Source: Enterobacteria phage CHB7. From it: DNA of 64,000 bases. The stretch is from the sequence record MK562504.1. One strand, 5' to 3'. This document shows positions 8,707 through 28,866 of the stretch, piece after piece; position 1 is the first letter of the stretch; the number at the start of each line of letters is the position of its first letter. The notes beneath the pieces were generated by a model, which worked only from the letters and a program-made list of their open reading frames with translations, searched no databases and was not told the DNA's origin. Both the position numbers and the translations under genes were made by a program.

Positions 8707-9162
8707 TTACTTAAACCTACAACAATCTTTGTGGAGTTCCTTTCTCAGTTTCTTCATAAAATCAACAGCTTCCTCAAACTTTTCAAATCTTCTTGAAACC
8801 GTTTTCTTGTTATATGTTACTGAAGCTCTCCATCTTCTTCTTGTAGAGTCCCAAGATACACCTTTAAATCCAGTTTTGTTATCCTCTCGCAATTTAGCAT
8901 TGCAAGCATTGTCAACTTTGTTAGAGGCTCTTAGGTTTATCCACCTGTTATCATCCTTGATACCATTTATGTGGTCTACTAATTCAGGAGCATCTTCACC
9001 CATCAAAGTGAAAGCTAATCTATGAGCATACTGTTTTGAACCATCTGGTAGTTCAATTAGTATGTATCCACTAGTTATCCTGCTTCCAGCCACATCTCCA
9101 CTATCTTTCCATCTTATCTCCCCATTATCCGGGTTATAGTCAAGAAAATTAGCTACATACAT
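8707..9162 (-). CDS. HNH homing endonuclease with AP2-type DNA-binding domain
   Basis: HNH core (AHRLAF...VDHINGIKDDNRWINLR) followed by an AP2-like segment (GFKGVSWDSTRRRWRA). Confidence 0.7.
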   Translation of the reverse strand: MYVANFLDYNPDNGEIRWKDSGDVAGSRITSGYILIELPDGSKQYAHRLAFTLMGEDAPELVDHINGIKDDNRWINLRASNKVDNACNAKLREDNKTGFKGVSWDSTRRRWRASVTYNKKTVSRRFEKFEEAVDFMKKLRKELHKDCCRFK

Positions 9163-11294
9163 ACTCTGTCCTTAATTTCTGCAATTTTTGCATCATTCAT
9201 TCTTGAAGTACCTTTTATTTTAGTCCACCCAAGATAACCACAAACACGATTGATAACTGAAATGTCATGTGAATGGCACTTAGGGCACTCATCAACATCT
9301 TCGTTAGGTCTATGTCCACAATTTTCACAGATTGCTAAGTCAAAGTTAACACCTTGATAGAAACCTTTACCCATACCTCGTGAGACACAAGCACTAATAG
9401 CTTTTTTGTTCTCTGGGTTTGCCATTCTAGAGTAAATGATGTGACCACCATTACAGCTATGGAATAAAGGTTCTTCCAAGTCTTGCTTCTGATATGGAGT
9501 AATATCTGCTGCAACGTTCATATGGAAGCTGTTAGTGAAATACTCTTTATCGGAAACATCTTTCACAACACCGAACATGTTACGGAACTGCTTCAATTGC
9601 GTCCCACAAAGGCTCTCAGCAGGTGTACCGTAAAGGGCATACAAGAAGCCATCTTGCTCTTTAAAGTGCGCCAGACGGTCATTCAGGTAGTCCAGAACTT
9701 GCTGTGCAATCACTTTCTGAGATTCATGTAGTCTACCTTCCCCAGCTAGTACAGAGAGTTCATCAAGTGCAGTTACACCGAAAGAAGCTGTGAAGGATTT
9801 CACAGTATCCCAACCAATTTTATCAGTTGGTTTCTTACCCCCTTTGTACAGGCCACCTTGTGTAAATGCCAGAGGGTTTGAACTTGCTGGCATGTTAGCA
9901 ATCATCTCATAGCGTTTCTTATGGAAGCTGCGAATCATTTCAAGGTATTTGTCAAGCTCTTTCCAGAAGTCTAAGCCGTTCTCTTTAGCATACTGGTAAA
10001 TCATTGGCAAGTTCAAAGATACTGCACCAATATTTGCACGACCAACGTAGAACTCTTCCCCGTTTTCGTCATAGTATGGAGACAGGAAAGCTCGACAACC
10101 CATCGGTGAAATCACCTTACCAGAACGTTCAAAAGCTTCTGCAACAGCACCATGACCAGATACACTCAAGAAGTCTGGGTACATCGCTTTAGAGCAACAC
10201 TCAATAGCTTTATTGTACAGTTGGCCTTGACAGATATCTTCACTGTGTCTTGTATGGTCATGAATGTAAACCAATTTAGGGAACACAACAGGTTTCTTGT
10301 TCTTACCTTGACCATTCATACGAACATCAAGAATAGTGTTTGCAATCATGTACTGAAGACGGTTATCTTCATCAGCCATATCTGAACCAAGTAAACCAAA
10401 TGTTAAAGTTGTGAATGCAAAGTCACCACGGCTGCAAGGTACAGTGTTCAGCTTCATCTCCAGTGACTGGAAACCTTGAGTTAGTTCAATCTGTAACTGT
10501 TCCATTACATAGTTGTAGTAATGTTCTTTGGGAATCCCATAAGAAGTTGCTTTCTCAGCATGGTAACGTAGAGACTTCTTAGCGTATGGCACAAGAATCT
10601 TGTCAATCTCTGGGATTGTAAAACCACCAAATTGCTGTGCAGTTGCTGACAATACAACATCACCGATAACCTGTAAAGCTGACAGAACAGACTTCGGTTC
10701 ACAGTACTCAATACCAGACATTTCAAAGCCACCTTTCAGGACTTTACCAATGTCAAATAGGCAACAGTTAATCCCACCAAATACCAAATCTCTCAGGTCG
10801 TGAATGTAGATGAAACCTGCCTCAATAGCTTCAAGTTCTTCTGGTGTCAAGTGATATTGCTTAAAGATTTCTTTAGTCAGGTATCCACGAATGATAGAAC
10901 CTTTTGTAGAGATTAAGCTACTGTCAAAGTTAGCATTCTCACGGTCACCTAAGAAGAGGGTGTCTTTAGTCTTCTGATAGAGTTCATCCCAATTCTGTGC
11001 AACTTCTTTACGGTAGTTACGGTAGGTTGAGTAAGATTCGTAAATCTCGTGATTAACTTCTGCTAAAGCCCCTTCAACAATACTGTGAATGTCATCTACA
11101 GAAATCAGTAAAGCATTCTGGTTAGAAGCCTTTACAAGAATCCGCATAAAAGCTGACTCAAGAGCATGAACAACTTCTAACGGGAGTTCTTTATAGCCAA
11201 CTCGGTTAGCTGATTTTGTAACTGCTGCTAGGACTTTCTTAATATCTGGTTCTTCAAGTGAGCCATTCTTTTTAATAATTTGTACTTTGACCAT
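9153..11294 (-). CDS. nrdD: anaerobic ribonucleoside-triphosphate reductase (class III)
   Basis: ATP-cone N-terminus, C-terminal glycyl-radical motif (RVCGY) and zinc-ribbon cysteines. Start reassigned to ATG at 11294 (MVKVQII), preceded by an AAGGAG ribosome-binding site. Confidence 0.85.
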   Translation of the reverse strand: MVKVQIIKKNGSLEEPDIKKVLAAVTKSANRVGYKELPLEVVHALESAFMRILVKASNQNALLISVDDIHSIVEGALAEVNHEIYESYSTYRNYRKEVAQNWDELYQKTKDTLFLGDRENANFDSSLISTKGSIIRGYLTKEIFKQYHLTPEELEAIEAGFIYIHDLRDLVFGGINCCLFDIGKVLKGGFEMSGIEYCEPKSVLSALQVIGDVVLSATAQQFGGFTIPEIDKILVPYAKKSLRYHAEKATSYGIPKEHYYNYVMEQLQIELTQGFQSLEMKLNTVPCSRGDFAFTTLTFGLLGSDMADEDNRLQYMIANTILDVRMNGQGKNKKPVVFPKLVYIHDHTRHSEDICQGQLYNKAIECCSKAMYPDFLSVSGHGAVAEAFERSGKVISPMGCRAFLSPYYDENGEEFYVGRANIGAVSLNLPMIYQYAKENGLDFWKELDKYLEMIRSFHKKRYEMIANMPASSNPLAFTQGGLYKGGKKPTDKIGWDTVKSFTASFGVTALDELSVLAGEGRLHESQKVIAQQVLDYLNDRLAHFKEQDGFLYALYGTPAESLCGTQLKQFRNMFGVVKDVSDKEYFTNSFHMNVAADITPYQKQDLEEPLFHSCNGGHIIYSRMANPENKKAISACVSRGMGKGFYQGVNFDLAICENCGHRPNEDVDECPKCHSHDISVINRVCGYLGWTKIKGTSRMNDAKIAEIKDRVCM

Positions 11295-11310
11295 TTGTGC
11301 TCCTTTGTAT

Positions 11311-11334
11311 ACGAAAAAGGTCTCCGAAGAGACC
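11311..11334 (-). terminator. intrinsic terminator
   Basis: Hairpin GGTCTC-CGAAGA-GACC with adjacent A-run; a near-identical hairpin recurs at 15425. Confidence 0.5.
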
Positions 11335-11340
11335 CTTATA

Positions 11341-11547
11341 TTAATTCTTTTTGAAAATCTTCTCAACAAACTTTTTGAGTTTGCCGCTAATGTCAAGATG
11401 GATTTCTAGAATCTCAAAGATTACCCATACTAGCATAGCACCAAACAAAGCACCTTGTTTGATATCAATAAATAGGTTCACAAAGAAGAAACCGAGTACA
11501 ATCATCGGTGCATCAACTGTGAAACCTTCCCACAAACGCTTAAGCAT
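11341..11547 (-). CDS. small hydrophobic membrane protein (68 aa)
   Basis: Translation is dominated by hydrophobic stretches (VLGFFFVNLFIDI, FGAMLVWVIF). Confidence 0.35.
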   Translation of the reverse strand: MLKRLWEGFTVDAPMIVLGFFFVNLFIDIKQGALFGAMLVWVIFEILEIHLDISGKLKKFVEKIFKKN

Positions 11548-11782
11548 TGTTCACCTCTTCCATAAAGTCTTGTAGTGTACCAACCGGAGTCAGGACAGTA
11601 TCTTCGGTCTTCATAATGAACGGCATCTGACGAACTGGCATCTTTGCAATATCAATCAGGTCTGACAGTTCATAATCCTGTCCTAACATTCTTACAATGT
11701 GGTCAATACCACGAGCCTTCGCAAAGTTCTTTGCAGTTTCACACTGAGGGCAACCAGTTTTGGAGTAAATTACGTAAGTCAT
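11540..11782 (-). CDS. glutaredoxin/NrdH-like redoxin
   Basis: CPQC active-site motif at the N-terminus of an 80-aa protein within the nrd cluster. Confidence 0.7.
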   Translation of the reverse strand: MTYVIYSKTGCPQCETAKNFAKARGIDHIVRMLGQDYELSDLIDIAKMPVRQMPFIMKTEDTVLTPVGTLQDFMEEVNNA

Positions 11783-12855
11783 TAAGGAACCTCTAAATAT
11801 CCTGAGTTTAAATCATCTACAACGGTATTCAACAAGTACGCACCGTTTTGCTGTTCTTGGTTAGCATTCTGCTCTTTATCAATTTCCATCTTCTTAATCA
11901 TATATTTCAAAGGTGGTTCTTTAGGAGCTACGAAGTCTCTTGGAATACCAAACATATCATACAATGGTGCAGCATTATAGTAAACCCACTCATGTAGAAG
12001 TTTTGTATTCAAACCAACTACGGCACGACCCTCAGAGAAAATATAATAAGACCATTTCTCTTCACTTTCAACTACTTCATCAAGAATTACTTTGATTTCT
12101 GGAAGAACCTGACGGAAAGCTTCTTGCCATTCTTCATCTTTCAAAGTCTCTTTCAGTGCTTCAATGTCAATCTTCGTGTGAAGGATTTCATCAAGCATAA
12201 TTTTCTGTACTGCCTGAGCAATACCTTGGAACTTATCTTGTGCATCAAGTGCAAAGGTACATGCAAAGGATGCCATAAAGGATACACCTTCCAAGGCAGT
12301 TACTGCAAAGAGACCTTTCAAAATTACTTTGTGAAAGTGTAAAGGGTCTTTCTCAAGCAGTGAATCACGAACATAACTTAGACGATAGTTGATACCTTCG
12401 TCAAGTAATTCTTCCAGTGCTCTGTTCACAGTCTTCAGACGGTCTTGTACAGCAGCATTCTGGTTAATCTCATCAAGGATTGTTTCAGGATTCTTAATAC
12501 ACTGACGAACAATCTCTGAATAAGTTAAGGCATGAAGGTTCTCAATTTCAGATTGCTTCATAATTGCCGTTGCGTAGATATCATCAGAGATGAATGGTGC
12601 AAAAGCAAATGCCAAACTCTTAGCAACCTGTGTATCAGCTTCCCACTGCCACTTAAGAATCTCAAGCATTACACCAGACATTGATTCTGGAACACTTTCA
12701 AAGTCTAACCGTGACTGCTCAAACGGGAACTCATCTTCAGACCAGTCTTGTGCTTTCTGCTGTTTGTACAGTTCAAAGATTTTTGGATAGTGTTTGTTGA
12801 GTGAGTCAAAAGTTTTTCGCTCACCACCTAAAAAGATTGGATGTTGGTTAATCAT
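11782..12855 (-). CDS. nrdB: ribonucleotide reductase small subunit (class Ia beta)
   Basis: Length of 357 aa and position between nrdA and the redoxin; helical, ferritin-like composition. Confidence 0.8.
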   Translation of the reverse strand: MINQHPIFLGGERKTFDSLNKHYPKIFELYKQQKAQDWSEDEFPFEQSRLDFESVPESMSGVMLEILKWQWEADTQVAKSLAFAFAPFISDDIYATAIMKQSEIENLHALTYSEIVRQCIKNPETILDEINQNAAVQDRLKTVNRALEELLDEGINYRLSYVRDSLLEKDPLHFHKVILKGLFAVTALEGVSFMASFACTFALDAQDKFQGIAQAVQKIMLDEILHTKIDIEALKETLKDEEWQEAFRQVLPEIKVILDEVVESEEKWSYYIFSEGRAVVGLNTKLLHEWVYYNAAPLYDMFGIPRDFVAPKEPPLKYMIKKMEIDKEQNANQEQQNGAYLLNTVVDDLNSGYLEVP

Positions 12856-13127
12856 AATGGTAGGTTTCCTGTTTCATAAAATTCTCTGGCTTCTGACGCT
12901 GTTAAAACTTGCCAACGGTCAACTTTAAACATGTCAAGAGACCTTGCATAAGTGTTGCTTGGGTTGAAGCAGTCAATATAACGAAGATGCTCTTTCCAAG
13001 AACCATCTGGCATTTTAACTTTCAGGTGATAGTCTGCAATATAATATAGAGACTCCCTTGGAATATAATACAGATACAAAGCACAGTTTGGTTCTCTGTT
13101 CCTTGCATCTTGAATGAGTTCTAACAT
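12852..13127 (-). CDS. hypothetical protein (91 aa)
   Basis: ORF between nrdA and nrdB with 4-nt overlap to nrdB. Confidence 0.4.
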   Translation of the reverse strand: MLELIQDARNREPNCALYLYYIPRESLYYIADYHLKVKMPDGSWKEHLRYIDCFNPSNTYARSLDMFKVDRWQVLTASEAREFYETGNLPL

Positions 13128-13133
13128 GGTTTC

Positions 13134-13155
13134 TCCAAAAGGGGCTTTACAGCCC
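13134..13155 (-). terminator. intrinsic terminator-like hairpin
   Basis: GGGGCT-TTAC-AGCCCC with flanking A/T runs, between nrdA and the 91-aa ORF. Confidence 0.35.
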
Positions 13156-13164
13156 CCTATTTAG

Positions 13165-15399
13165 TTAAACTCCGCAACCTTCACAGTAAGCGTCTTGGAG
13201 TGCTGACTTACCAACACCAATACGACTGTTAAGGTAGTACATAGTTTTCATCCCAACTGAGTTAGCATAAATCATGTACTTCAAAGCTTGCTCTAATGAT
13301 ACTTTTTTCGATTTTGAATAGTCAACATAGAAATCTGAAGAGATAGCTTGACCAGTGAATTTTTGAACAATTGCATAGCAATCAATCATATCAAATGTGT
13401 CAATATCCCAAGCAATTTCATAGACATACTTCAACTCTTCGTAATCTGGAACGATAAACAGGACGTTACCAGTAGCTGACTTCTTGGTTAAAATGAAGTC
13501 ACGAATTGGGTACAAACCATTTGTCGTATTAGTTGCCAGTGAAGAACTCTCATTAGGCATGTAAGCCTCAAGTACAGAGTTTCTGATACCACCATTTGCT
13601 TTAATACGGTCTGCTAAGTCATCCCAATCATAACGAAGTTTTGCATCGTGTTTCGTATCAATCTTCCTGTTAGCTGTCTTCGGAGGAACCCAACCTTCAG
13701 GATACTTGGTGAACTTCATATATTCAGGTACACCACGCTCTTTTGCAAGTCTTAGTGAAGCCTCATGCAGATAGTAAGAGTGCATCTCTGCAAGTTCATG
13801 TAGCTTCGTTTTACCTGCTCTTGAAGAATAGTTCACGTAGTTCTTCGCAAGGTAGTGAGCCACATTCGTAAGGCCAATCCCAACAGAACGACGTTTCTGA
13901 ACGTGGTTACGCATTGACGGATACGGATAGTCCATAAGGTCAATAACGGAGTCAACCATTGCAAGAGCATAATAAGCAACGTCAGCGTATTCATCTTCTG
14001 TGATTCTCCCTGCTACCAGACTAGCCAAGAAGCAAAGAGCAACTTCACCATCTTCTTTAGGTGATGTGTAACTGTAAAGGTCACGTTCATCTTCAAACCC
14101 GTGAACTGGCAGTATAATTTCCATGCACAAGTTAGACATTTTCAAAGCTTCTTTAAACGGTGTGTGTGTGTTCGCATTGTTCGTAAAGAACGGATACACA
14201 CGACCTGTGGCATAACGTTGCTGGATGAACAGCTTGGCAACTTCACGAGCCTTAACACGTTTATGCTTAACACCTGAATGAACTGCGTGACCAACTGCCA
14301 TAGCAAACTCATCAGCAGATGCTGTGTAGAACATATCATAAAGCTTTGGAGCGTCCTTGTAAGAGAACAGCAACCAATCTGTGTCATACTGTACACACTG
14401 CCAGAAATAGTCATTTGCACCAAATGAATAGTCCATCTCATTAATACGCTTAGAAGGAACCGTTGTAGGGTGCTTCAAACGTAGTAAATCTTCAATCTGC
14501 GGGTCTAGGGCAGTGTAGAAGTTGTTAGCTGAACCACCACGACTCTTCTGTTTATTGGCCTCTACAGCAGCACGTACAAGTTTGTAGTAAGGAAGCTTAC
14601 CCATGTGTTCAATGGTGTTTTGACGAATACCATCACCAATTGTACGGGTCTCCATCAGCATACCAATACCAGCTTGCTTCGTGGTCATATCATAAGCTAC
14701 CTTAGTAGCAATGCCAAGAGACTCAGCAGTGTCATTAGCCTTGATTAAGCAGCATGACGCATAACCTGACTTAGTAGCACGTAAACCATTCAGATAAGGC
14801 GTAGGAGCGTTAATCTTCAGGTCAGACAGGTAAGTGTACAGCTTGATAACATCTTCCAGTCTACGGTGCTTGGGTTGTCTCTCAAAGGCTTTCATAGCCA
14901 TACCCATAAACATAAACTGTGGAGACTCAAACAGACGACCTGACTTGATATCTCGGATACCATATTTGTCACGGAACTGCTTCAGTACTGCGTAACCGTA
15001 AGAGATATCTTTTGAGTGAACAATGTGACCTTGTAAATAGTCAATTTCTTGTTCGGTGTAATCCATGTGCTCCCACAAACCCATTTGCTCCATCTTCATA
15101 ACGAAGTTGAACAGTTGAGGAACTTTTGTGAAACCACCAAAGGCTTCTTTGTAGATGATACCAAGGAGTAATCGACCAGCCATATCAGAGTACTCTTGAG
15201 TCTGCTTATCAATACAAACGTCAATCATAGCTTGGTGCATCTCTTTGGTAGAGCAACCTTCATAAACACGCTTCATGGCTTCCATAGTTACTTCTGACCA
15301 AATGATTCCTCGTTTGTCAGCCCATGAAGCCCATTTGTTTAAACGTTCTGGTTCGAATGGCACGATTGTACCGTCAGATTTGCGAATGGTCTTAATCAT
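13165..15399 (-). CDS. nrdA: ribonucleotide reductase large subunit (class Ia alpha)
   Basis: 744 aa with N-terminal ATP-cone (IKTIRKSDGTIVPFEPERL) and a C-terminal cysteine pair (CEGCGV). Confidence 0.85.
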   Translation of the reverse strand: MIKTIRKSDGTIVPFEPERLNKWASWADKRGIIWSEVTMEAMKRVYEGCSTKEMHQAMIDVCIDKQTQEYSDMAGRLLLGIIYKEAFGGFTKVPQLFNFVMKMEQMGLWEHMDYTEQEIDYLQGHIVHSKDISYGYAVLKQFRDKYGIRDIKSGRLFESPQFMFMGMAMKAFERQPKHRRLEDVIKLYTYLSDLKINAPTPYLNGLRATKSGYASCCLIKANDTAESLGIATKVAYDMTTKQAGIGMLMETRTIGDGIRQNTIEHMGKLPYYKLVRAAVEANKQKSRGGSANNFYTALDPQIEDLLRLKHPTTVPSKRINEMDYSFGANDYFWQCVQYDTDWLLFSYKDAPKLYDMFYTASADEFAMAVGHAVHSGVKHKRVKAREVAKLFIQQRYATGRVYPFFTNNANTHTPFKEALKMSNLCMEIILPVHGFEDERDLYSYTSPKEDGEVALCFLASLVAGRITEDEYADVAYYALAMVDSVIDLMDYPYPSMRNHVQKRRSVGIGLTNVAHYLAKNYVNYSSRAGKTKLHELAEMHSYYLHEASLRLAKERGVPEYMKFTKYPEGWVPPKTANRKIDTKHDAKLRYDWDDLADRIKANGGIRNSVLEAYMPNESSSLATNTTNGLYPIRDFILTKKSATGNVLFIVPDYEELKYVYEIAWDIDTFDMIDCYAIVQKFTGQAISSDFYVDYSKSKKVSLEQALKYMIYANSVGMKTMYYLNSRIGVGKSALQDAYCEGCGV

Positions 15400-15418
15400 T
15401 ATTTTAGAGTCCTACAGG

Positions 15419-15442
15419 TGAAAAAGGGTCTCCGAAGAGACC
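15419..15442 (-). terminator. intrinsic terminator
   Basis: Hairpin GGGTCTC-CGAA-GAGACCC with adjacent A-run. Confidence 0.5.
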
Positions 15443-15451
15443 CATTAGAGA

Positions 15452-15787
15452 TTAAATGCTAAAGATTTGTTTACTTTGCCAAAGTTCATAGAACTTGTGA
15501 GAAACCTTAGTCAGTGAAGCTTTTGACATTGCGTTGCAGTACCACCAACGTTTAGTTTCATCAAACAGTTTTTCAAGGTCTTCGTGCAGGTTGTCTTCCA
15601 TTCGTGAAATAACAAAGTTACCACGCTTCTTACCAGTAACACGACCAAACTTGATATCACTTCGCCCTTTACAATCCTCTGTGTACATCACTATGTCACC
15701 GAACCGTAAAGGTTTGTCAAACTTATCTACTCCAAGTTCAACGCCAGCTTTTACATCTTCAATTGTAAGCTTATTTGTTTTAGACAT
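15452..15787 (-). CDS. hypothetical protein (111 aa)
   Basis: Intact ORF. Confidence 0.4.
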   Translation of the reverse strand: MSKTNKLTIEDVKAGVELGVDKFDKPLRFGDIVMYTEDCKGRSDIKFGRVTGKKRGNFVISRMEDNLHEDLEKLFDETKRWWYCNAMSKASLTKVSHKFYELWQSKQIFSI

Positions 15788-16112
15788 GATATTTATCCAA
15801 GCTTCGTTTCAGGTAAAGCCACCCATCATCAGTGCGCTCAACACCCATGAACAGTGGAGCCGTTACAACCTTTCCAAACGTATTGCGATGTTGACAAATC
15901 TCATAAGAGTATGTCTTCTCAATGTTCAGGCCATATTTAAAAAGCACTGCTTTCAAGACCTGTTCATTATCCAGTAAAGTTTCTGGTGTCTCTCCATATT
16001 TTACTAACAGTGAATCATTCATAAACACTGTCATAGAGAGATTATAGTTTGAGAAATGGCTCTTTGGAGCCACCTCTTCAGTATTAATGTTCTGTGAATC
16101 CATTATAACCAA
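15780..16112 (-). CDS. hypothetical protein (110 aa)
   Basis: Intact ORF overlapping neighbours by a few nt. Confidence 0.4.
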   Translation of the reverse strand: MVIMDSQNINTEEVAPKSHFSNYNLSMTVFMNDSLLVKYGETPETLLDNEQVLKAVLFKYGLNIEKTYSYEICQHRNTFGKVVTAPLFMGVERTDDGWLYLKRSLDKYHV

Positions 16113-16839
16113 CCCCTTTTAACCAATTCTTCAGGTTATTTGCATCATAGTTCAGTTTCGGGTATGAGGTCACATGGAACTTCTCACCGTCATAGTAAAC
16201 AATATCTGCAAGCCATAATCCGTTTTCTCGGCAGAAGTCTTTGTCTGCTTTCGAACTGATTGGTCGAACTTCTGTGAAGTCACTCAATCCAAGGTCTTTC
16301 AAACTTCCTAAAAGACCTTTACAGATAACGCATGTGTCAGATGTTACCACGAACAATTCTTTGCTTTCAAGTTCCGCGATGAACTCTGCAAGCTGTACTT
16401 TAGGAAGATTAGACTGCTTCATAATCTTCTTATCAGATTCACGTACAATGGCGTACCATTCTTTTCCGTCAATCATTGAAGCACGTACACGACATTCATC
16501 TCCAGTACGCTTCTCGATATCTGCAAGACGCTTCAAAGCTTCCTCATAGTTATCGGTATATTTCAGGTTGTTATTCTCACAGACTGCCCTCATAGCCCCA
16601 TCATGGTCATGCTGTGAAAGGTAAATCAGTCCATCAAGAACATACTGTAAATCTGCCTGAGCATCAAGAGCCTCAATAGGGTCTTTTTCATCAACAGCTT
16701 TCAAAAGCTCTTTGGCTTCTTCTAACATGCAAAGTGCTTGACTACGCATTGAAGACCAGTACTCAGTTGTGTAAGGAGTCAACGGGGTATTCCCACAACG
16801 CTGATTCCAAGTTAAAACGGATTCTCTGGAATTAAACAT
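16084..16839 (-). CDS. hypothetical two-domain protein; possible thioredoxin-like C-terminal half
   Basis: 251 aa; helical N-terminal half and a CxxC motif (CVIC) in the C-terminal half. Fold not established. Confidence 0.3.
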   Translation of the reverse strand: MFNSRESVLTWNQRCGNTPLTPYTTEYWSSMRSQALCMLEEAKELLKAVDEKDPIEALDAQADLQYVLDGLIYLSQHDHDGAMRAVCENNNLKYTDNYEEALKRLADIEKRTGDECRVRASMIDGKEWYAIVRESDKKIMKQSNLPKVQLAEFIAELESKELFVVTSDTCVICKGLLGSLKDLGLSDFTEVRPISSKADKDFCRENGLWLADIVYYDGEKFHVTSYPKLNYDANNLKNWLKGVGYNGFTEH

Positions 16840-17066
16840 TAAACCTCCTGAAACAGTTTCTGCTGAGACTCAATATAATCCAGTCGGCCTTTCAGTTCAA
16901 CACGTTTGTTAATCAGGTGCTGAATCTGGGACTCAAGAGCCTCCATTTCGGACTCCGTAGCTTCTTTAGCTTTGATGATTGCATCTTTAAGTGCTGCAAT
17001 GTGGCTGTCAATCTTAGCTACGTGGTCATTCTTCAGTTTGTTAAACATAATCTTATTCTCTCTCAT
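16839..17066 (-). CDS. hypothetical coiled-coil protein (75 aa)
   Basis: Heptad-like charged/hydrophobic pattern. Confidence 0.35.
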   Translation of the reverse strand: MRENKIMFNKLKNDHVAKIDSHIAALKDAIIKAKEATESEMEALESQIQHLINKRVELKGRLDYIESQQKLFQEV

Positions 17067-17553
17067 TAAGTTTCATGATTTTATGGATTCTCTTCTCAGC
17101 ATCTTCATAAGTCTCTTTAGTCAGAAACTTGATTGCTGCAATGTTTGCATTGTAGAAGAGTCGAAGCTTGGAGTCAATCCTTTTTGTCATGACGTCAAAC
17201 TTATGTTGGAGGTTAGCTTCTCCGTAGACCAACCCACCTCGCGTATAATAAGTTTGCACAATATAGAAGTCAAACTCTTTTTCACCGAAAGTTTCAATAT
17301 CTTTCTTAATGTATTCAGAAGAGGTCTGGTAAACCATCCAGTCACTCTCTTTTGTCACAATCTTTCGTCTGGTCTTTCCAGCTACTTTCTTCTTGGTGAC
17401 ATTGTTAAACTGCTTCTTACCGATGTAATACTGTCCAGTCTTTTTGCAGTACACTAAGTAAACGAAACCAAAATACTTAGCGGGGTCAATCTCCCCGCAC
17501 AGTGAAATCCAATGTCCATATTCAGGGCAATTGCCAAAACCTTTAATCTTCAT
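17053..17553 (-). CDS. GIY-YIG-like endonuclease (putative)
   Basis: FVYLVYCKKTGQYYIGKK resembles a GIY...YIG core; placement about 30 aa from the N-terminus is atypical. Confidence 0.4.
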   Translation of the reverse strand: MKIKGFGNCPEYGHWISLCGEIDPAKYFGFVYLVYCKKTGQYYIGKKQFNNVTKKKVAGKTRRKIVTKESDWMVYQTSSEYIKKDIETFGEKEFDFYIVQTYYTRGGLVYGEANLQHKFDVMTKRIDSKLRLFYNANIAAIKFLTKETYEDAEKRIHKIMKLNERE

Positions 17554-18074
17554 TCATAAGCTTCTCCGTGATTTACAAACTCTCTATGGAGTTCTTCTCT
17601 TCTCTTTATGATGGCTTCTTTAGCCTCATCAATGGTCTCAAATGCACCGATGAAATGTGTTACACCATGTACCATGATTCTTGCTCTCCACTTCTTGGAG
17701 GCTTTGTTAAATGATACACCTTTCACACCGGATGTGTTATTTGAGTGGGTTTTTCTATTCCAGCTATTCTCAGCTTGGGTACACACTCTTAAGTTTTCAC
17801 GGCGATTGTCATCTGTTAACCCGTTACGGTGGTCTACACGTTCCGGTAAGAAACCATCAGTGTAAAGGATTGCTAAATCATGAGCCATATAAGCTTTCCT
17901 TTTGATGGTGATTCTGATGTAGCCTCTGTCATGAGGTGAACCAGCTACTGAACCAACAATAGTCCTGTTAGCAGATTTCTTAAGCCAAGTAAAGACCCCT
18001 GTATCGGGGTCATAATGCAGGTATTCTTTAAGAGTCTTCTGCGTTAACATTTGGAGTCCACCCATACTTTTCAA
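17550..18074 (-). CDS. HNH homing endonuclease with AP2-type domain
   Basis: YDPDTGVFTW N-terminal signature, HNH core (VDHRNGLTDDNRRENLR), AP2-like GVKGVSFNKASKKWRA. Confidence 0.7.
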   Translation of the reverse strand: MKSMGGLQMLTQKTLKEYLHYDPDTGVFTWLKKSANRTIVGSVAGSPHDRGYIRITIKRKAYMAHDLAILYTDGFLPERVDHRNGLTDDNRRENLRVCTQAENSWNRKTHSNNTSGVKGVSFNKASKKWRARIMVHGVTHFIGAFETIDEAKEAIIKRREELHREFVNHGEAYE

Positions 18075-19086
18075 ACGTAAAGTCGTCTTTAGGGTTACGC
18101 TCTTGATATGCTAAGAAGAAGTGCTGGTGCATCAGTTCAAGAGGTGTTCTTGTAATCACCTGACCATCCCACGATTCATAAGTATATGAATCTTTCTTAG
18201 CGTAGAGTTCATAGATAGCATCAAGGCATTCTTTATAGGTCTCTTTACCTTCCAGAGCGTTCATTACAGCAACTTTCCCTGCACCCTTAAGACCAAAGTA
18301 GTTATCTGCGTTATCTCCTGCTACAGCTTGATAGCAGAGGAATTTGAAGCCTACACCAACAGTCTTTTTAGCTTTCGGCTTAGACTTGATAGGGCAATCC
18401 CAAATATTACCTACGTTACCGTCTGCAATGAAAATCAGAGGGGCTTTCTCGTAAGTCATATCAATACAGTAAGTTCCTTCCGCTTGGCGAAGGTCTTTAT
18501 CAATACTCATAAGAGCAGCCTTCTTACCCATCTTCTCAGCTTTTGCAATAACAATGGAGTCAGCTTCAAAGCCACCTTTGAGAAGCTTAAACTCAGGTCG
18601 TGACAGAAGATACTCACGACAAGCAACTAAATGCGTAGGGGTTACTGATTCTTTACGGTTACCTTGATACTGGTGTTCAAGACCTTTAATGTCTTTGTGT
18701 TTATGTACACCTTTCTCAGTGAGGTATCCCATCCAAGTTCGCTCTTTACCAACAACTTTCAACCATTCCTGAAGAACTTGTTGAGTTGCCATAATAGCTT
18801 CTTTTTCACTCTTAGCTTCTTTCCAAGATTGTCTTTCCCATTCATCTTCATCGAATGCAAGACCAAGTTCCTCTGTTAGAACTCTCTGGTCAGATAGCCA
18901 TTGATTAGCATCTTTAGCACTTTCAAAGGCATCAGACTCTTCAGCAGTGAGTTTATTCACATACTTGTACTTTGCTTTCTCAACGACACAGGCTCCCTTG
19001 TAAGCAATACTGTCAGAGTCAATAAAGACATGTGTCACAGTATCTGGGAGTTTTGTTAACGTGTACTTTTCCATTTGTATCTCCAA
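18028..19086 (-). CDS. rnh: RNase H / 5'-3' exonuclease (FEN family)
   Basis: N-terminal acidic motif (VFIDSDSIA) and a second acidic cluster (EADSIVIA...LMSIDKDLRQ) match the flap-endonuclease pattern of T4 RNase H. Confidence 0.6.
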   Translation of the reverse strand: MEIQMEKYTLTKLPDTVTHVFIDSDSIAYKGACVVEKAKYKYVNKLTAEESDAFESAKDANQWLSDQRVLTEELGLAFDEDEWERQSWKEAKSEKEAIMATQQVLQEWLKVVGKERTWMGYLTEKGVHKHKDIKGLEHQYQGNRKESVTPTHLVACREYLLSRPEFKLLKGGFEADSIVIAKAEKMGKKAALMSIDKDLRQAEGTYCIDMTYEKAPLIFIADGNVGNIWDCPIKSKPKAKKTVGVGFKFLCYQAVAGDNADNYFGLKGAGKVAVMNALEGKETYKECLDAIYELYAKKDSYTYESWDGQVITRTPLELMHQHFFLAYQERNPKDDFTFEKYGWTPNVNAEDS

Positions 19087-19090
19087 TACG

Positions 19091-19119
19091 AAAAAGCCCC
19101 ATACTAAGTACAGGGCTTT
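19091..19119 (-). terminator. intrinsic terminator-like hairpin
   Basis: AAGCCC-loop-GGGCTT hairpin with adjacent A-run. Confidence 0.35.
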
Positions 19120-19136
19120 GTAGTAACTACTGAGAA

Positions 19137-19988
19137 TTAATCTTCAGTATCGAAATCTTCTTCGTCGTCGTCATCTGGGTCTGGCATATCATCGTCGTCA
19201 TCGTCAGAGTTAGTATCTTCAGAATCCTTCGCATCTTCTTCGGTGATTTCACCGTTATCTTCAACGCCATCCAGACCAAGCAGAGCCAGTTCATCTTCAT
19301 CCAGTTCAGGCTCACCGTTACCACCTGTACCACCAGTGTACGGAACCAGAGTATCAATGATAAACTGTTCCTGAATCGGCTTCGTCAGAACGTTGCTTTC
19401 AAAAGTGTAGAAGTGAGTTGCAAGAATCACACTACCAAATGAACCGTTGCCGACTGCGATATCTGGGTGAATAACATCATAAGTTTTGTCGTCATCGTGT
19501 TTGTCAGAATGTTGAGCCTTGATTTTCTTCATCGGCTGTTTAACTGCAACACGCTTACCGTTAACTTCTTCAATCAGCATAACAGGGAATGACTGTTTCG
19601 CTGTCCAGACTGCACCATCTTTATAAGCAGCAGCACGACTTACTTTCAGAATGTGATAAGTGTCTGCTTCAAATGGTGGTTTGCAACCGAACTTCTCTTC
19701 AAAGTCATCTGCATCAACAGCTTCAGTTGTAACCTTATCCCAACCATCAGGATTCTTTTTAGACTTGGTGAACTCTTTGAAGAGTTTGTTACCATCTTTT
19801 GCCAGAATTGAAACGCTGTAGTTACAATCTTTGCCTGGGAATTTCTTATCAACTGATTTACCTTTTCCCGGACGTGGAATAGTATTCAGGTAGTAGAACC
19901 AAACATCTTTTAGCAAGTAACGCAGAGTCTGACGTTCAGTACCGTTGTATTTTTCTACCGGAGATTTCATTTTAACAACTTTAGACAT
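19137..19988 (-). CDS. acidic-tailed protein, possible ssDNA-binding protein
   Basis: Strongly acidic C-terminus (DDDDDDMPDPDDDDEEDFDTED) as in phage SSBs. Start moved to ATG at 19988 (MSKVVKM), which has an AAGAGGA ribosome-binding site. Confidence 0.35.
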   Translation of the reverse strand: MSKVVKMKSPVEKYNGTERQTLRYLLKDVWFYYLNTIPRPGKGKSVDKKFPGKDCNYSVSILAKDGNKLFKEFTKSKKNPDGWDKVTTEAVDADDFEEKFGCKPPFEADTYHILKVSRAAAYKDGAVWTAKQSFPVMLIEEVNGKRVAVKQPMKKIKAQHSDKHDDDKTYDVIHPDIAVGNGSFGSVILATHFYTFESNVLTKPIQEQFIIDTLVPYTGGTGGNGEPELDEDELALLGLDGVEDNGEITEEDAKDSEDTNSDDDDDDMPDPDDDDEEDFDTED

Positions 19989-20074
19989 TCTTAAATCCTC
20001 TTTCTCAAAATTATTTCTTTCAAACTTGAAGGAGTACAATCTTACAGACTTCATACTCCCTTGTCAAACACTTT

Positions 20075-22642: not shown

Positions 22643-22647
22643 CTCTC

Positions 22648-23391: not shown

Positions 23392-23451
23392 ATACCATTA
23401 TCTCCATACGAAAAAGCCCCCAATTAAGGAGGCTTTGGGAAAACAATTCTA

Positions 23452-24255: not shown

Positions 24256-24256
24256 A

Positions 24257-24679: not shown

Positions 24680-24937
24680 AATGCCCTCTTTTAAGTATCT
24701 ATTAAACTTAATCTGTTTTCTTTACGTATTCTATACGTATAACTTTAAAGCTTCTTAAAAGCTATTAAAAATCTTTTAAGGGGTTTTAAAGAAACTGTAT
24801 AGTTAATCTGTAAAGGGAGTCTTTTAAGTTAAAACCCACTTCGCAAAGATTAACACCTTGTCAAGTGAATTGTCAACTTGCTTTTTGAAACTTTTTGCAG
24901 TAATGTATTGAGTCAATGATTTTGAGAGGGAGTAAAA
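24680..24937. promoter_or_regulatory. divergent promoter/operator region
   Basis: 258-bp AT-rich gap between divergently oriented genes; duplicated TTGTCAA elements, inverted CTTAAAAG/CTTTTAAG motifs, duplicated ACGTAT, and GAGGGAG ribosome-binding site before the polymerase ATG. Confidence 0.5.
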
Positions 24938-27637
24938 ATGGAAAACGTAGATTTTGAAAACTTGCACTTGGTAGGTGATACCGAAACTGATGGGTTACTC
25001 CTTGAGTTCACAAAAGCACACGTAATGGCATTTGCAGATTACAAAGATGACAGTGACGAACCTGCTGTGTGGGTCTTCACCGATGAACCTATTCTTGGTC
25101 ACAAGTGTACCAAATACATCAAAGGTGGTCTTCGTGAAGGTGTAGAGTTTGCTCTTAAGGCAAAGCGTCTCTGCATTCATAACGGTCTGGGTTATGACTG
25201 GTGGGTGTTCAATCACATTGCGCCGGACTTATGGAACTTTGACAATCCGAAGTGCAAACCTTGGGGAGACTTCTTTCAGGATTCTCTTATCCAGTCTCGT
25301 GTTCAGTGGATGGATAGACCTACACCGAAAGGTTACAAAGGTGCTCATGGTTTGGCTGCATGGGGTGCTCGTGTTGGTGTTCGTAAACCAGAGATTGAAG
25401 AGTGGGGCGTTTGGAATGCTGACATTCTGAACCGTGTTGTTGAGGATATTCGAATCAACGCCAAAACTAAACGTGCTCTTGATAACGAATACCTGAAGTT
25501 GAAGAAGTGTGGTGTAGACACTTACGAAACATACATGCGAGCTAAAGAAACATCTTTTTGGATGAGTCAGCAAGCTATCAACGGTTGGAAAGCTGATATT
25601 GAACTTATGCAGTTCCATGTCAAAGAACTTGACAGAATGACTGATGAATTAGCTGCTGAAGTTGAGCCTCATCTACCACCGACTATTAAGACGAAAGGCA
25701 AAGTCACTGGCGAAGAGTTTGCAAAAGCTTGGAACGAGTATGTGGAGACATTTGGTGAAGCAGATGGTTTGAAGCGTATCACTAAGTATCCAAAAACCAA
25801 GTTCCGTCAGCAGGTTCGTAATGGTGAGATGCAGACTTACGCTATCAAACCTTTTGGTAAACCGACTACCAAGATTTTCAACATTGAGAAGCGTAACTGC
25901 TACACTCCAACTAACACGGTTACGGGAGAAGAGTACAAAGAAGGTTTTGTGGCAATGAAAGATGCTCGTGCAGTTTGTAACGAGTTGAATGCTGTGATTG
26001 ATAAGAAGTGTAAAGACTGGAAACCAGTTAAAACTGTGAAGACTGTGAAGTACTACAACAATCACGTAGTAAATCACTTTGAACTTGAGTCAAGCCGTTA
26101 CACAGGTTTGATTGATGCGCCTTATACACCAATTGAGTTTGAAGTTTCACGCATGACTCAGGTTGCGGTTGTGAAGGATTATCTGAAAACTCTTGGCTGG
26201 ATTCCTGATGACTGGAACTACAAGAAAGATTCTGATGGTCGTCCGGTGAAGGTTTGTCGCTTCAAAGACAACAAGAAGATGATTCGTAAACATCCGAAAT
26301 GGCAAGAGATGGTAGACCGTTGTGGGTTGAACTATGTTGAACATGAAGGTGTACAGTACATCGAACACAACTGGTCTGTGAAGAAGTACACAGATTTGCT
26401 TGAGCCTTGCTTGATTCGTACTTCACCGAAACTGACTGAATCATCTTACGATACGATTGAAGGGGAACTTGGACAGAAGATTGCGAAGTACTATACTTTG
26501 ATGCACCGACGCAGAACTATCGAAAACTCAAAGGATGACGAAAAGGGTTGGTTAAACCAGATTCGTCCAGATGGTCGTTTGAGTGCTGGTGCAATGGTGT
26601 TTGGTACTTCAACTGGACGTATGACACAATATGGAATTGTGAACGTACCTTCTGGAGCTGCTGTTTACGGTGAACCGATGAGGGCAGTCTGGATTTGTGA
26701 AGAAGGAACAAACGTAGTTTCCGTTGATATGAACTCTGCACAGCTTGTTCTACTGTGTAACTTTATGGGTGATAAGGAGTTCACCAAAGCGGTAACTCAG
26801 GGTAAAGAAGAGATTGAGTTTATCCGTCAGGAAGACGGTAGATACTACTGTAAACACTTTGACGAATACCTGAATCCAGAAGTTGATAAGTATCTGCGTT
26901 ACGACTCTGAAAATGACTTGTACGTAGTCTACTCAGGTACTGATGCTCATACACTGAACAGTATCTACTTCAGCTTGAACGAAGAACAAGATATCTTGAC
27001 TTGTCGTATGACTCAGGATGAAAATCTTCTTCACGAAATCAGTAAGGGTCGTAAGAAAGCTAAGAATGGTATCTATGCGTTACTGTTCGGTGCTGGTGAT
27101 GAGAAGTTTGCTAAGACGATTAAAGCTGCGACTACTCAGGAAGGTGCATTAACTAAACAGACTTACTTTGTGCGTTTGCCGAAGATTAAGAAACTGTTAG
27201 ATGACTTGGAAGCTGACTTTAAAGCAACTAAGAAAGCACTCGAAGAAGTATTTGGTAAGACTGCTGCAATTGCTAAAGGTGGTTTTGTCAAGGTTGCTGG
27301 AGCATGGTTGTGGTGTAAGTCTCCACACAAACTGTTGAACTACTTGCTGATGGGTTCAGAGGCACAAGTTCAGAATGAAGCAATCAACCTTGCATGTCGT
27401 CGTATGATTGATGAAGGTTTGATGAAGTTGAACGGTCGTAAGCCAGCTATCGGTGCTCGTTTACTCTGTGCATATCACGATGAAACAAGTTGGGAATGTC
27501 CAGAGAGCATGACAGCAGAAGTTAAGGCTGTGACTGACTGGTACTACGGTCAAGCTTCTAAGAACTTAGGGCTTCGTAAAGAAACTCTGGTAACAGGGAC
27601 TGGTAAAGTTGGTAAGTCTTGGTATGAGGTGCATTGA
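24938..27637 (+). CDS. DNA polymerase, family A
   Basis: 899 aa; N-terminal exonuclease motif (DTETDG), motif B-like RKKAKNGIYALLFG and motif C-like YHDE. Confidence 0.85.
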   Translation: MENVDFENLHLVGDTETDGLLLEFTKAHVMAFADYKDDSDEPAVWVFTDEPILGHKCTKYIKGGLREGVEFALKAKRLCIHNGLGYDWWVFNHIAPDLWNFDNPKCKPWGDFFQDSLIQSRVQWMDRPTPKGYKGAHGLAAWGARVGVRKPEIEEWGVWNADILNRVVEDIRINAKTKRALDNEYLKLKKCGVDTYETYMRAKETSFWMSQQAINGWKADIELMQFHVKELDRMTDELAAEVEPHLPPTIKTKGKVTGEEFAKAWNEYVETFGEADGLKRITKYPKTKFRQQVRNGEMQTYAIKPFGKPTTKIFNIEKRNCYTPTNTVTGEEYKEGFVAMKDARAVCNELNAVIDKKCKDWKPVKTVKTVKYYNNHVVNHFELESSRYTGLIDAPYTPIEFEVSRMTQVAVVKDYLKTLGWIPDDWNYKKDSDGRPVKVCRFKDNKKMIRKHPKWQEMVDRCGLNYVEHEGVQYIEHNWSVKKYTDLLEPCLIRTSPKLTESSYDTIEGELGQKIAKYYTLMHRRRTIENSKDDEKGWLNQIRPDGRLSAGAMVFGTSTGRMTQYGIVNVPSGAAVYGEPMRAVWICEEGTNVVSVDMNSAQLVLLCNFMGDKEFTKAVTQGKEEIEFIRQEDGRYYCKHFDEYLNPEVDKYLRYDSENDLYVVYSGTDAHTLNSIYFSLNEEQDILTCRMTQDENLLHEISKGRKKAKNGIYALLFGAGDEKFAKTIKAATTQEGALTKQTYFVRLPKIKKLLDDLEADFKATKKALEEVFGKTAAIAKGGFVKVAGAWLWCKSPHKLLNYLLMGSEAQVQNEAINLACRRMIDEGLMKLNGRKPAIGARLLCAYHDETSWECPESMTAEVKAVTDWYYGQASKNLGLRKETLVTGTGKVGKSWYEVH

Positions 27638-28149
27638 TGCAAGATTGTGGTTTTACTCATGAGCAATTAAAATCATGGATTCACTACGACCCCTTAACAG
27701 GGGTCTTAACTTGGATTGGTAGACCTCCTAACAGTGGTCGGGTGGTTATAGGCAGTCAAGCTGGGTCAATCAAAAGGACAAAATCTGGTGTGTATCTTCA
27801 TACACAGATACTAGGTTACAGGACAGGGAATCACCGTATTGCTTGGTTCTGGATGACTGGAAAATGGCCTGATAAACATATTGACCATAAGGATGGAGAT
27901 GGTCTAAACAATGCTTGGGAGAATCTTAGAGAAGCCACGAAAGAGCAGAACATGGCTAACAGGAGACAACCTAGAACATCAAAGAGTTTAAAAGGCACAA
28001 GTAGAAGCAAATCTGGAAAGTGGATTGCACAGATTAACCATAATGGAAAGACTAACCATATTGGCACATACATGACCGAGCAAGAAGCCCACGAAGCTTA
28101 CTGTGAAGCTGCTATAAAACTCCACGGAGATTTTGCAAAACTTAGTTGA
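27634..28149 (+). CDS. HNH homing endonuclease with AP2-type domain
   Basis: YDPLTGVLTW signature, HNH core (IDHKDGDGLNNAWENLR), AP2-like segment; overlaps the polymerase stop by 4 nt. Confidence 0.7.
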   Translation: MMQDCGFTHEQLKSWIHYDPLTGVLTWIGRPPNSGRVVIGSQAGSIKRTKSGVYLHTQILGYRTGNHRIAWFWMTGKWPDKHIDHKDGDGLNNAWENLREATKEQNMANRRQPRTSKSLKGTSRSKSGKWIAQINHNGKTNHIGTYMTEQEAHEAYCEAAIKLHGDFAKLS

Positions 28150-28201
28150 CAAGGTGCTCATGGAAGAGTACCTTATACTATATATTGTATAGGAGACTTG
28201 T

Positions 28202-28856: not shown

Positions 28857-28866
28857 GAGGTTTAAA

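Follow-up and report, generated by a model that had tools for sequence, protein, structure and literature searches.

The window analyzed here is a stretch of 64,000 nucleotides from Enterobacteria phage CHB7 (MK562504.1) in which four small open reading frames (ORFs) with nuclease-like domains lie among genes for nucleotide metabolism and replication (Table 1). Three of them combine an HNH_3 domain with a C-terminal AP2 domain and are referred to as HNH_A, HNH_B, and HNH_C; the fourth carries a GIY-YIG-type domain (GIY gene). An earlier note made from the sequence alone had placed nuclease ORFs at 8707-9162(-), 17053-17553(-), 17550-18074(-), and 27634-28149(+), coordinates that proved exact, and the domains it named are present. 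The HNH_B ORF is open from 18074, with ATG 18050 as its likely start, and the likely start of HNH_C is ATG 27637. A further gene at 6794-7105 is labelled "HNH endonuclease" in relatives, yet Pfam gives DUF7390 alone, and it was left out of the count.

All close matches to the window are Ounavirinae of the Suspvirus group, the closest being mistaenkt, which matches 95% of the query at 96.9% identity, and the phage is a Suspvirus, a Felix O1-like myovirus. The T4-type framing of the earlier note does not hold, since the polymerase belongs to family A (DNA_pol_A) instead of family B and the taxonomy is not T4-like. HNH_A had been described as lying between nrdG and nrdD; it does adjoin nrdD, downstream of it, but not nrdG, because a hypothetical gene intervenes. 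Similarly, HNH_B has the neighbor assigned to it, but this neighbor is a 5′-3′ exonuclease gene and not an RNase H gene, as indicated by its assignment to phrog_107, weak NCBIfam matches to Pol I 5′-3′ exonucleases, and annotations in relatives. All four genes are intergenic and leave every coding sequence unbroken. An Rfam search of the window at the gathering threshold returned tRNAs alone, with no group I or group II intron, and nrdD, which is transcriptionally upstream of HNH_A, is intact and intron-free.

Table 1. Genes and sequence features around the four nuclease ORFs of the window
Feature	Position	Strand	Remarks
nrdG	7672-8157		
Tract around HNH_A, read as co-converted	8153..9452	.	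Perfect identity over 933 bp (8520-9452) and 217 bp (8153-8369)
Hypothetical gene, 132 aa	8154-8552		Between nrdG and HNH_A
Terminator-like hairpin	8662..8697	(-)	16 pairs, then TTTATT
HNH_A, putative HNH_3 + AP2 homing endonuclease gene, 151 aa	8707..9162	(-)	
nrdD, anaerobic ribonucleotide reductase, 713 aa	9153..11294	(-)	Pfam NRDD, E = 7.5e-114; ATG and ribosome-binding site at 11294
GIY-YIG-fold gene, SegE-type catalytic domain, 166 aa	17053..17553	(-)	Pfam SegE_GIY-YIG, E = 6e-27
HNH_B, putative HNH_3 + AP2 homing endonuclease gene, 166 aa	17550..18050	(-)	Pfam
5′-3′ exonuclease gene (FEN / T4 RNase H-like)	18028..19074	(-)	phrog_107; upstream of HNH_B
Divergent haplotype, exonuclease 3′ end	18058..18300	.	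79-97% to Suspvirus relatives vs 98-100% further upstream
Family A DNA polymerase (pol), 899 aa	24938..27637	(+)	Pfam DNA_pol_A; upstream of HNH_C
pol 3′-end haplotype	27300..27633	.	
HNH_C, putative HNH_3 + AP2 homing endonuclease gene, 170 aa	27637..28149	(+)	Pfam
Exact 12-mer GTTGACAAGGTG	28145..28156	(+)	Contains HNH_C stop codon; hairpin follows

In the predicted products of the three HNH genes, HNH_3 scored above gathering throughout (37.6, 33.8, and 54.9 bits; Pfam cutoff, 24.8), and each was assigned a C-terminal AP2 DNA-binding domain on Pfam scores that are below gathering (19.5, 25.4, and 30.3 bits; cutoff, 33.3). The proteins are paralogs with a pairwise identity of 31-39%, and their alignment contains a conserved His/Asn motif with D63, H64, N72, N76, L77, R78, and N85 invariant. 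NCBIfam holds no family for any of them or for the GIY protein. Each is encoded by a separate ORF, outside any intron or intein, whose own start overlaps the upstream stop in another frame. The ATG of HNH_A overlaps the final 10 nt of nrdD, an overlap that is the same 10 nt in the homologs of 64-99% identity, and its Shine-Dalgarno sequence (AAGGA) lies within nrdD. HNH_C overlaps the polymerase stop as the earlier note had it, the A of its ATG being the A of the pol TGA, with a Shine-Dalgarno sequence (GAGGTG) within pol. HNH_B sits between the exonuclease and GIY genes, its TGA stop sharing bases with the ATG of the GIY gene (ATGA).

Compared with empty sites, the three genes are clean insertions at the stop codons of essential genes, with conserved junctions: 446 bp for HNH_A, 491 bp for HNH_B (relative to seven relatives), and ∼502 bp for HNH_C (relative to EcSzw-2, pEC-M719, Silverhawkium, and S.Kent). 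Their presence at these defined sites is sporadic both within the genus and across the subfamily, according to summary counts and about 14 loci inspected among ∼300 Ounavirinae records. HNH_A occurs at the nrdD site in only one of 362 matching phage records, that of Silverhawkium, which belongs to another genus; site B is occupied in 84 of 301 records, and the HNH_C lineage (at least 80% amino acid identity) was found in 46 phage records of ∼300 Ounavirinae. Every site combination is different within Suspvirus. For instance, mistaenkt lacks HNH_A and HNH_B but carries HNH_C, EcSzw-2 has a different ORF at site A, a 52-53%-identical HNH gene at site B, and an empty site C, and SUSP1 has a NUMOD3-type homing endonuclease gene (HEG) at site A and a 44%-identical HNH-AP2 gene at site C. 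The combination of all three genes found in the window was absent from all relatives examined.

In each of the upstream genes (nrdD, exonuclease, and pol), the 3′ end forms a haplotype that tracks the HEG state, in the case of pol only partly. The clearest signature surrounds HNH_A, which is 100% identical to Silverhawkium gp14. The partner of the tract listed in Table 1 is Shigella phage Silverhawkium (Mooglevirus), whose genome is elsewhere ∼85% identical to the window; the 933-bp run is longer than any other exact match they share, the next being one of 123 bp, with a 95th percentile of 20 bp for exact runs. Over its last ∼300 bp, nrdD reaches no more than 78-88% identity with any Suspvirus relative. 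A Suspvirus-like metagenome contig shows the same division, with 92-98% identity to the window over most of the nrdD body versus 81-88% over the nrdD 3′ end and HEG. HNH_A lies between the nrdD stop and the terminator-like hairpin, which in HEG-less relatives is found directly 3′ of that stop. By sequence comparison, co-conversion of the flanks is thus clearly indicated for HNH_A, and it is suggested for HNH_B and HNH_C. Because of the presence/absence polymorphism at the junctions and the apparent co-conversion around HNH_A, the three HNH-AP2 genes can be taken as markers of horizontal flux, as the earlier note had proposed in calling them markers of recent flux.

At the pol stop, HNH_C is 99-100% identical to mistaenkt_63. 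The pol 3′ haplotype of the window is 98-100% identical in mistaenkt, which has the same HNH_C, and in EcSzw-2, which has an empty site, and 67-91% identical in relatives with other HEG lineages and in pEC-M719, also with an empty site. Haplotype and HEG are therefore imperfectly linked, given that the HEG-less EcSzw-2 has the pol 3′ haplotype of the window. Separately, positions 28600-29300 are 92-100% identical to Silverhawkium, a mosaicism without a link to a HEG.

For HNH_B, an 86%-identical copy occupies site B in S.Kent 1-2-1, and no copy above 86% amino acid identity was found in the phage collection. Beside it, the exonuclease C terminus ending in FAKYGWEPVMNED before the stop is rewritten as one ending in FEKYGWTPNVNAEDS. 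Comparison of HNH_B with the S.Kent ortholog gave a dN/dS of 0.06 at a dS of 1.27, the former indicating a functional protein. A recent arrival was considered and rejected, as the dS to this nearest copy in the phage collection is no lower than that of the flanks. Consequently, the arrival of HNH_B in the lineage of the window need not be recent, and vertical inheritance accompanied by repeated losses would account for the data just as well.

When presence and absence were compared at the junctions, as the earlier note had recommended, HNH_A, HNH_B, and HNH_C were polymorphic, whereas the GIY gene occupied the same position in essentially every Ounavirinae record. It is single copy at a threshold of at least 60% identity in 297 records, essentially all the Ounavirinae in the collection, and always adjoins the exonuclease gene, to which it is normally translationally coupled. 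Across these ∼297 records, no presence/absence variation was found. The protein is 93-100% identical in nine of nine relatives examined, with Y31, Y42, G44, E111, N113, and R130 invariant, and its dN/dS of 0.04-0.07, at a dS of ∼0.5-1.0, is comparable to that of pol and the primase-helicase gene. The earlier note had counted this gene among its markers of horizontal flux and had itself named conservation at an identical position as an observation that would speak against that view; with respect to position, this is what the GIY gene displays, and together with its constraint it leaves the claim unsupported for this gene. In its distribution and sequence, the GIY gene behaves as a non-mobile, vertically inherited, and strongly constrained core gene of the Ounavirinae.

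All four genes could instead be active selfish HEGs, the GIY gene having swept to fixation in the subfamily. This is what its SegE-type GIY-YIG catalytic domain, a best fold match to the catalytic domain of I-TevI, its place next to a HEG hotspot, and the label "GIY-YIG homing endonuclease" among the GenBank annotations of relatives would lead one to expect. However, a fixed HEG without empty targets is expected to decay, and the GIY gene is intact in all these records, without presence/absence variation and under the constraint described above. A Seg-like DNA-binding module is also not evident, because the protein has 166 residues and only about 28 of them extend past the catalytic domain; in the structural model, 121-130 is of low confidence and 149-164 forms a terminal helix, and no DNA-binding family was detected in the protein. 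Homologs in the two cyanomyoviruses examined (T4-like, both labelled T4-GC 213) are single copy and syntenic as well. We consider a selfish quartet unlikely, although the GIY gene may be a fixed HEG with homing still directed at phages further removed. It seems rather to be a fixed or domesticated nuclease that benefits the phage in DNA replication, recombination, or degradation. A more specific version, which we put forward tentatively and at not quite even weight, is that of a domesticated nuclease of the SegE type that lacks a DNA-binding domain, a non-selfish universal Ounavirinae core gene coupled to the exonuclease and acting in the processing of replication or recombination intermediates or in the degradation of host DNA. 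In databases, the gene is often mislabelled "NAD synthetase," which neither domain nor fold analysis supports; no literature joining this name with GIY-YIG in phage was found, and a PDB sequence search with the protein gave no significant match.

Taken jointly, we hold it highly probable that the three HNH-AP2 genes are free-standing HEGs and that the GIY gene is a non-mobile core nuclease, the mobility of the former being inferred from comparative genomics. The HNH-AP2 genes, of the HNH_3 (I-HmuI-like His-Me finger) plus AP2 class, each sit exactly where an essential gene (nrdD, the exonuclease gene, or pol) ends, and no promoter of its own was detected for any of them. They are probably co-transcribed and translationally coupled with the upstream essential gene, because their starts overlap the upstream stop and the Shine-Dalgarno sequence lies inside the upstream gene. 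A promoter scan of 8000-19500 was uninformative (25 sites versus 26.9 expected) and gave no evidence of HEG-specific promoters. By analogy with known systems, when a relative without the gene co-infects the cell, the enzyme would introduce a nick or cut close to the junction in the HEG-less allele, and recombinational repair off the HEG-bearing genome would copy in the endonuclease gene along with a few hundred base pairs of essential-gene flank. The evolutionary outcome visible in the sequences consists of clean indels, patchy spread, several HEG lineages and families at the same sites, and flanks that appear co-converted.

Alternatively, the HNH-AP2 genes might be passive cargo, moved by homologous or illegitimate recombination at conserved intergenic hairpin motifs in a PeSL-like modular shuffling. 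The 12-mer GTTGACAAGGTG has exactly two copies in the window, the second at 8692-8703(-) after HNH_A, so that, within the window, the motif and its hairpin mark the 3′ boundary of HNH_A and that of HNH_C and nothing else; they are also present at empty sites, and mosaic tracts unlinked to HEGs do exist. On the other hand, the 5′ boundaries lack a matching repeat and fall inside stop codons of coding genes, site B has no GTTGACAAGGTG-type motif, and the exchanged tracts reach ∼300 bp into coding sequence, the HNH_A tract being by far the longest exact match to Silverhawkium. In addition, the identifiable cargo at these junctions in relatives consists of nuclease genes of unrelated families (HNH_3-AP2, NUMOD3/colicin-like HNH, and Endonuclease_7), with one exception, an unassigned 112-aa ORF in EcSzw-2. 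Passive shuffling thus appears quite improbable. The 12-mer was likewise considered as a homing target and left as a minor rival; it is kept downstream of the inserted genes and is absent at site B. Domestication of the HNH-AP2 proteins as accessory factors (AP2-type regulators, exclusion or anti-competitor nucleases, or HK97 gp74-like terminase cofactors) would accord with the selection on the HNH_B protein, with HNH proteins of similar architecture that have non-homing roles, and with the additional function of I-TevI as a repressor (PMC10448857), but it is very unlikely in view of a distribution that is patchy even inside one genus, sites held interchangeably by 41-53%-identical lineages and unrelated nuclease families, the distance from the terminase gene, and the co-conversion signature.

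Free-standing homing as the preferred reading has close parallels. In T4, free-standing HEGs comprise MobA-E and SegA-G. MobE, located at nrdA/nrdB, and SegG, located at gene 32, are examples, and both co-conversion and marker exclusion are known for these genes. Their location between essential genes and the co-conversion of flanking markers are well established (Edgell et al. 2010, cited in PMC8300805). Like those of T4, the HEGs of the window stand free between essential nucleotide-metabolism and replication genes and appear to have co-converted flanking markers, and by analogy it is plausible that they mediate marker exclusion. Unlike T4, the lineage is Ounavirinae with a family A polymerase, nrdD has no introns, and the HNH genes carry AP2. 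The earlier proposal that free-standing genes replace intron-borne ones accordingly loses its T4 frame but finds an echo in the annotations of relatives, in which an HNH_3 ORF splits the nrdD gene of Si3 and an Endonuclease_7 ORF the pol gene of PC79-13. An Rfam search of these regions at the gathering threshold returned only tRNAs and no group I intron, and this result therefore gives no ground for assigning the split genes to group I introns. The GIY gene matches the catalytic domain of T4 SegE (Pfam PF19835) and has the GIY-YIG fold, but it has no recognizable C-terminal DNA-binding region and is universal, syntenic, and constrained rather than sporadic.

Closest to the window are the HNH HEGs of Felix O1 and other Ounavirinae (mistaenkt_63, Silverhawkium gp14, and EcSzw2_53), with which its genes have the subfamily, protein family, and genomic sites in common. 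In contrast, the IPA-HNH HEGs of ICP1 have divergent HNH domains, whereas those of the window are canonical HNH_3 detected directly by Pfam. I-HmuI (PDB 1U3E) is encoded in an intron of the SPO1 DNA polymerase gene and binds DNA through NUMOD and helix-turn-helix modules, while the window genes are free-standing and carry AP2. HNH-AP2 proteins are a recognized HEG family (PMC10448857), traced in that source to Magnani et al. 2004. Six HNH HEG copies were described in Felix O1 (Whichard et al. 2010, PMC3185647), and HEG infestation with gene conversion was reported in large coliphage genomes, Felixounavirus included (PMC8594841). The presence of several HNH homing endonucleases in phages of the Felix O1 type has been published and annotated before; the finding is real but ordinary and leaves the current understanding of homing endonucleases unchanged.

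The locus nonetheless offers a clean worked example of mosaicism driven by homing endonucleases in a phage group used in Salmonella and E. coli biocontrol. The core-gene behavior of the GIY gene shows that "homing endonuclease" annotations can mislead, and if the "NAD synthetase" counted among cyanophage auxiliary metabolic genes belongs to the same family, that count would depend on the unsupported name. In nrdD, the exonuclease gene, and pol alike, the 3′ end is a HEG-associated exchange cassette that should be left out of phylogenies and treated with caution as a marker.

A megablast search with the region 8000-28500 returned 297 phage records, all of them from Felix O1-like myoviruses. The top match, at 96.9% identity and 95% query coverage, was Escherichia phage mistaenkt (Ounavirinae, Suspvirus); EP1, SUSP2, EcSzw-2, and PC79-13 came next. 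According to Pfam, the polymerase encoded at 24938-27637 belongs to family A. CHB7 is therefore not a T4-type phage, and the T4 comparison drawn in an earlier note, based on the sequence alone, holds only as an analogy.

The same note had described four homing-type endonuclease genes, and both the ORF listing and Pfam agreed with their coordinates and domain types (see table). HNH_A, HNH_B, and HNH_C are paralogs with pairwise identities of 31-39%. All three proteins match phrog_99 ("HNH endonuclease"), and the catalytic motif DH...N...NLR...N is invariant in an alignment of 46 HNH sequences. HNH_A indeed lies between nrdG and nrdD, except that a hypothetical gene of 132 aa (8154-8552) separates it from nrdG (7672-8157), and the supposed RNase H gene beside HNH_B encodes a 5'-3' exonuclease. 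Another gene, at 6794-7105(-), is annotated as "HNH endonuclease" in several GenBank relatives (e.g., mistaenkt_37 and Silverhawkium gp9). It matches only DUF7390 in Pfam and only a family of unknown function in PHROGs, and this nuclease label looks unsupported.

Endonuclease-type genes of the window and intervening lengths at their junctions (sites A, B, and C, at the 3' ends of nrdD, the exonuclease gene, and pol), measured with flanks anchored in nine relatives
Gene	Coordinates	Strand	Pfam domains	Site	Occupied	Empty
HNH_A	8707-9162	-	HNH_3 above gathering score, AP2 below	A	464 bp	18 bp
HNH_B	17550-18074 (probable start ATG 18050)	-	HNH_3 above gathering score, AP2 below	B	504 bp	13 bp
HNH_C	27634-28149 (probable start ATG 27637)	+	HNH_3 above gathering score, AP2 below	C	519 bp	16-17 bp
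GIY gene	17053-17553	-	SegE_GIY-YIG (E = 6e-27)			

Within the region, the only window-specific blocks relative to mistaenkt are 8714-9153 and 17560-18057, corresponding to HNH_A and HNH_B. Elsewhere, the window also has 193 bp near the rIIA end (2926-3118) that mistaenkt lacks, and the two phages diverge strongly in the tail-fibre gene region (35648-38265). The insertion point of HNH_A falls within the nrdD stop codon, and its ATG, preceded by an AAGGA Shine-Dalgarno sequence, lies 10 nt inside nrdD. Downstream of HNH_A comes a hairpin of 16 pairs and then TTTATT (8697-8662); in empty genomes, this hairpin is placed directly after nrdD. At site B, the window has the exonuclease gene, HNH_B, and the GIY gene in this order, each stop overlapping the next start (as ATGA between HNH_B and the GIY gene), and the C-terminal residues of the exonuclease are rewritten beside HNH_B; where the site is empty, the exonuclease and GIY genes overlap by 11 nt. 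The HNH_C start uses the A of the pol TGA stop, after a GAGGTG Shine-Dalgarno sequence. No promoter signal above chance was found for HNH_A, HNH_B, or HNH_C, and the natural reading is that each would be cotranscribed and translationally coupled with the upstream essential gene. The HNH_C stop codon lies within the 12-mer GTTGACAAGGTG. In the window, exact copies of this 12-mer followed by a hairpin occur only at the 3' boundaries of HNH_A (8692-8703(-)) and HNH_C (28145-28156(+)), with a one-mismatch copy at 24854-24865(-). It is also found at the corresponding empty sites of relatives, and 19 matches with at most two mismatches were counted versus 7.3 expected. In these phages, the 12-mer probably serves as a conserved terminator or promoter element between genes.

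Occupancy varies among relatives at all three sites. At site A, HNH_A was found in only 1 of the 362 phage records matching 8300-9600, that of Shigella phage Silverhawkium (Mooglevirus); at this junction, SUSP1 and Si3 instead have an HNH gene of the NUMOD3 plus colicin-DNase-like type, and EcSzw-2 a 112-aa ORF without family assignment. In a large protein database, HNH_A homologs (64-99% identity) reside mostly on Felix O1-sized contigs of about 81-89 kb. In every homolog inspected, the overlap with the nrdD stop is again 10 nt, indicating a site-specific lineage. Site B is occupied in 84 of 301 records, with HNH_B copies at 80% amino acid identity or more in 6 records and at 60-80% in 21; the copies in S.Kent 1-2-1 and EcSzw-2 are 86% and 52-53% identical to HNH_B, respectively. 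The HNH_C lineage (at least 80% amino acid identity) is present in 46 records. At site C, SUSP1, SUSP2, EP1, and PC79-13 carry HNH-AP2 genes just 41-44% identical to HNH_C, and the site is empty in EcSzw-2, pEC-M719, Silverhawkium, and S.Kent. The window's combination at the three sites is not shared by any two examined genomes of one genus.

Identity between the window and Silverhawkium is about 85% across the region but rises to 100% at 8520-9452 (933 bp) and 8153-8369; exact runs elsewhere reach 123 bp at most, and the 95th percentile of run length is 20 bp. The final ~300 bp of nrdD, within the HNH_A tract, are just 78-88% identical to all Suspvirus relatives, with mostly 92-99% identity for the remaining nrdD and a second dip at ~10200-10600. 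The same pattern is seen in a Suspvirus-like metagenome contig whose HNH_A homolog is 83% identical: over most of the nrdD body, identity to the window is 92-98%, versus 81-88% for the nrdD 3' end and the homing endonuclease gene. The nrdD co-conversion tract is unusually clean. Similar but weaker signatures accompany HNH_B and HNH_C. Identity to Suspvirus relatives drops to 79-97% at the exonuclease 3' end (18058-18300), and at the pol 3' end (27300-27633), identity is 98-100% with mistaenkt versus 67-91% with genomes carrying other endonuclease lineages. EcSzw-2 is a counterexample at site C, being empty yet sharing the pol haplotype of the window. For HNH_B and its S.Kent ortholog, dN/dS was 0.06 at dS 1.27; the protein is under selection, but its residence in the window lineage is not demonstrably recent. 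The stretch 28600-29300, lying among small hypothetical genes downstream of HNH_C, is also unusually close to Silverhawkium (92-100% identity, including the 123-bp exact run at 28777-28899), with no obvious link to an endonuclease gene in either phage.

A fifth nuclease gene, from a different family, is found inside the tRNA cluster (62025-62366(-); PD-(D/E)XK, PDDEXK_5 of I-Ssp6803I type, E = 3e-17). It is absent from mistaenkt, and only 8 of the 777 phage records matching 61700-62900 cover at least 80% of that stretch; this gene, too, is probably a mobile endonuclease insertion. Conversely, an HNH (PF01844) gene located between tRNA genes of mistaenkt (33942-34394 of comparison locus L003) is missing from the window at ~61724-61785. 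In the annotations of two relatives, an Endonuclease_7-family ORF splits the PC79-13 pol (L009 19743-20225) and an HNH_3 ORF the Si3 nrdD (L005 3238-3702). Rfam detected no group I intron in either, and the interruptions may be introns, split genes, or annotation artefacts.

The GIY protein is 93-100% identical, at an unchanged position, in nine of nine relatives. By tblastn at 60% identity or more, its gene occurs once per record in 297 records, which matches the count of Ounavirinae records retrieved with the flanking genes, Erwinia and Pectobacterium phages included. Its dN/dS (0.04-0.07) resembles that of pol and the primase-helicase gene and is below that of nrdG or the MazG-like gene. 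Homologs of 31-36% identity were found in about 500 additional records, mainly from T4-like cyanomyoviruses; both cyanophages inspected (L018 2923-3372 and L019 2887-3381) have a single syntenic copy labelled "T4-GC 213 / NAD synthetase". The GIY-YIG catalytic residues are present, with just ~28 residues past the domain. We read the gene as a fixed or domesticated nuclease. The family (phrog_447/T4-GC 213) widely carries the "NAD synthetase" label, also in RefSeq, a name supported by neither Pfam nor fold. In a 2023 review, "NAD synthetase" appears among the auxiliary metabolic genes of cyanophages, with 24 of 153 genomes containing it (PMC10452541), a count that may rest on the same label.

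The earlier note took all four genes as markers of recent horizontal flux, to be abandoned if they proved conserved at identical positions in all relatives without presence/absence variation and the proteins lacked nuclease activity. Conservation of this kind was found for the GIY gene, which is therefore not a marker of this kind; for the three HNH-AP2 genes, presence/absence at the junctions and the nrdD tract bear the proposal out, recency of HNH_B aside. Felix O1 was reported in 2010 to be free of introns and to have six copies of free-standing HNH homing endonucleases (PMC3185647), homing endonuclease genes are listed as variable in Felixounavirus comparisons (PMC8300805), and the BASEL study explicitly left out regions "infested with homing endonucleases" because of gene conversion (PMC8594841). 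The HNH-AP2 proteins form an established family of homing endonucleases, and for ICP1, nuclease genes have been described at boundaries of exchange (PMC10448857). The proteins themselves are also already in GenBank, annotated as endonucleases. The finding is therefore right in substance for three of the four genes, though not new. HNH_A, HNH_B, and HNH_C appear to be ordinary, evolutionarily mobile homing endonuclease genes of the HNH-AP2 type, carried by a Felix O1-like phage, and the GIY gene is a conserved core GIY-YIG gene.
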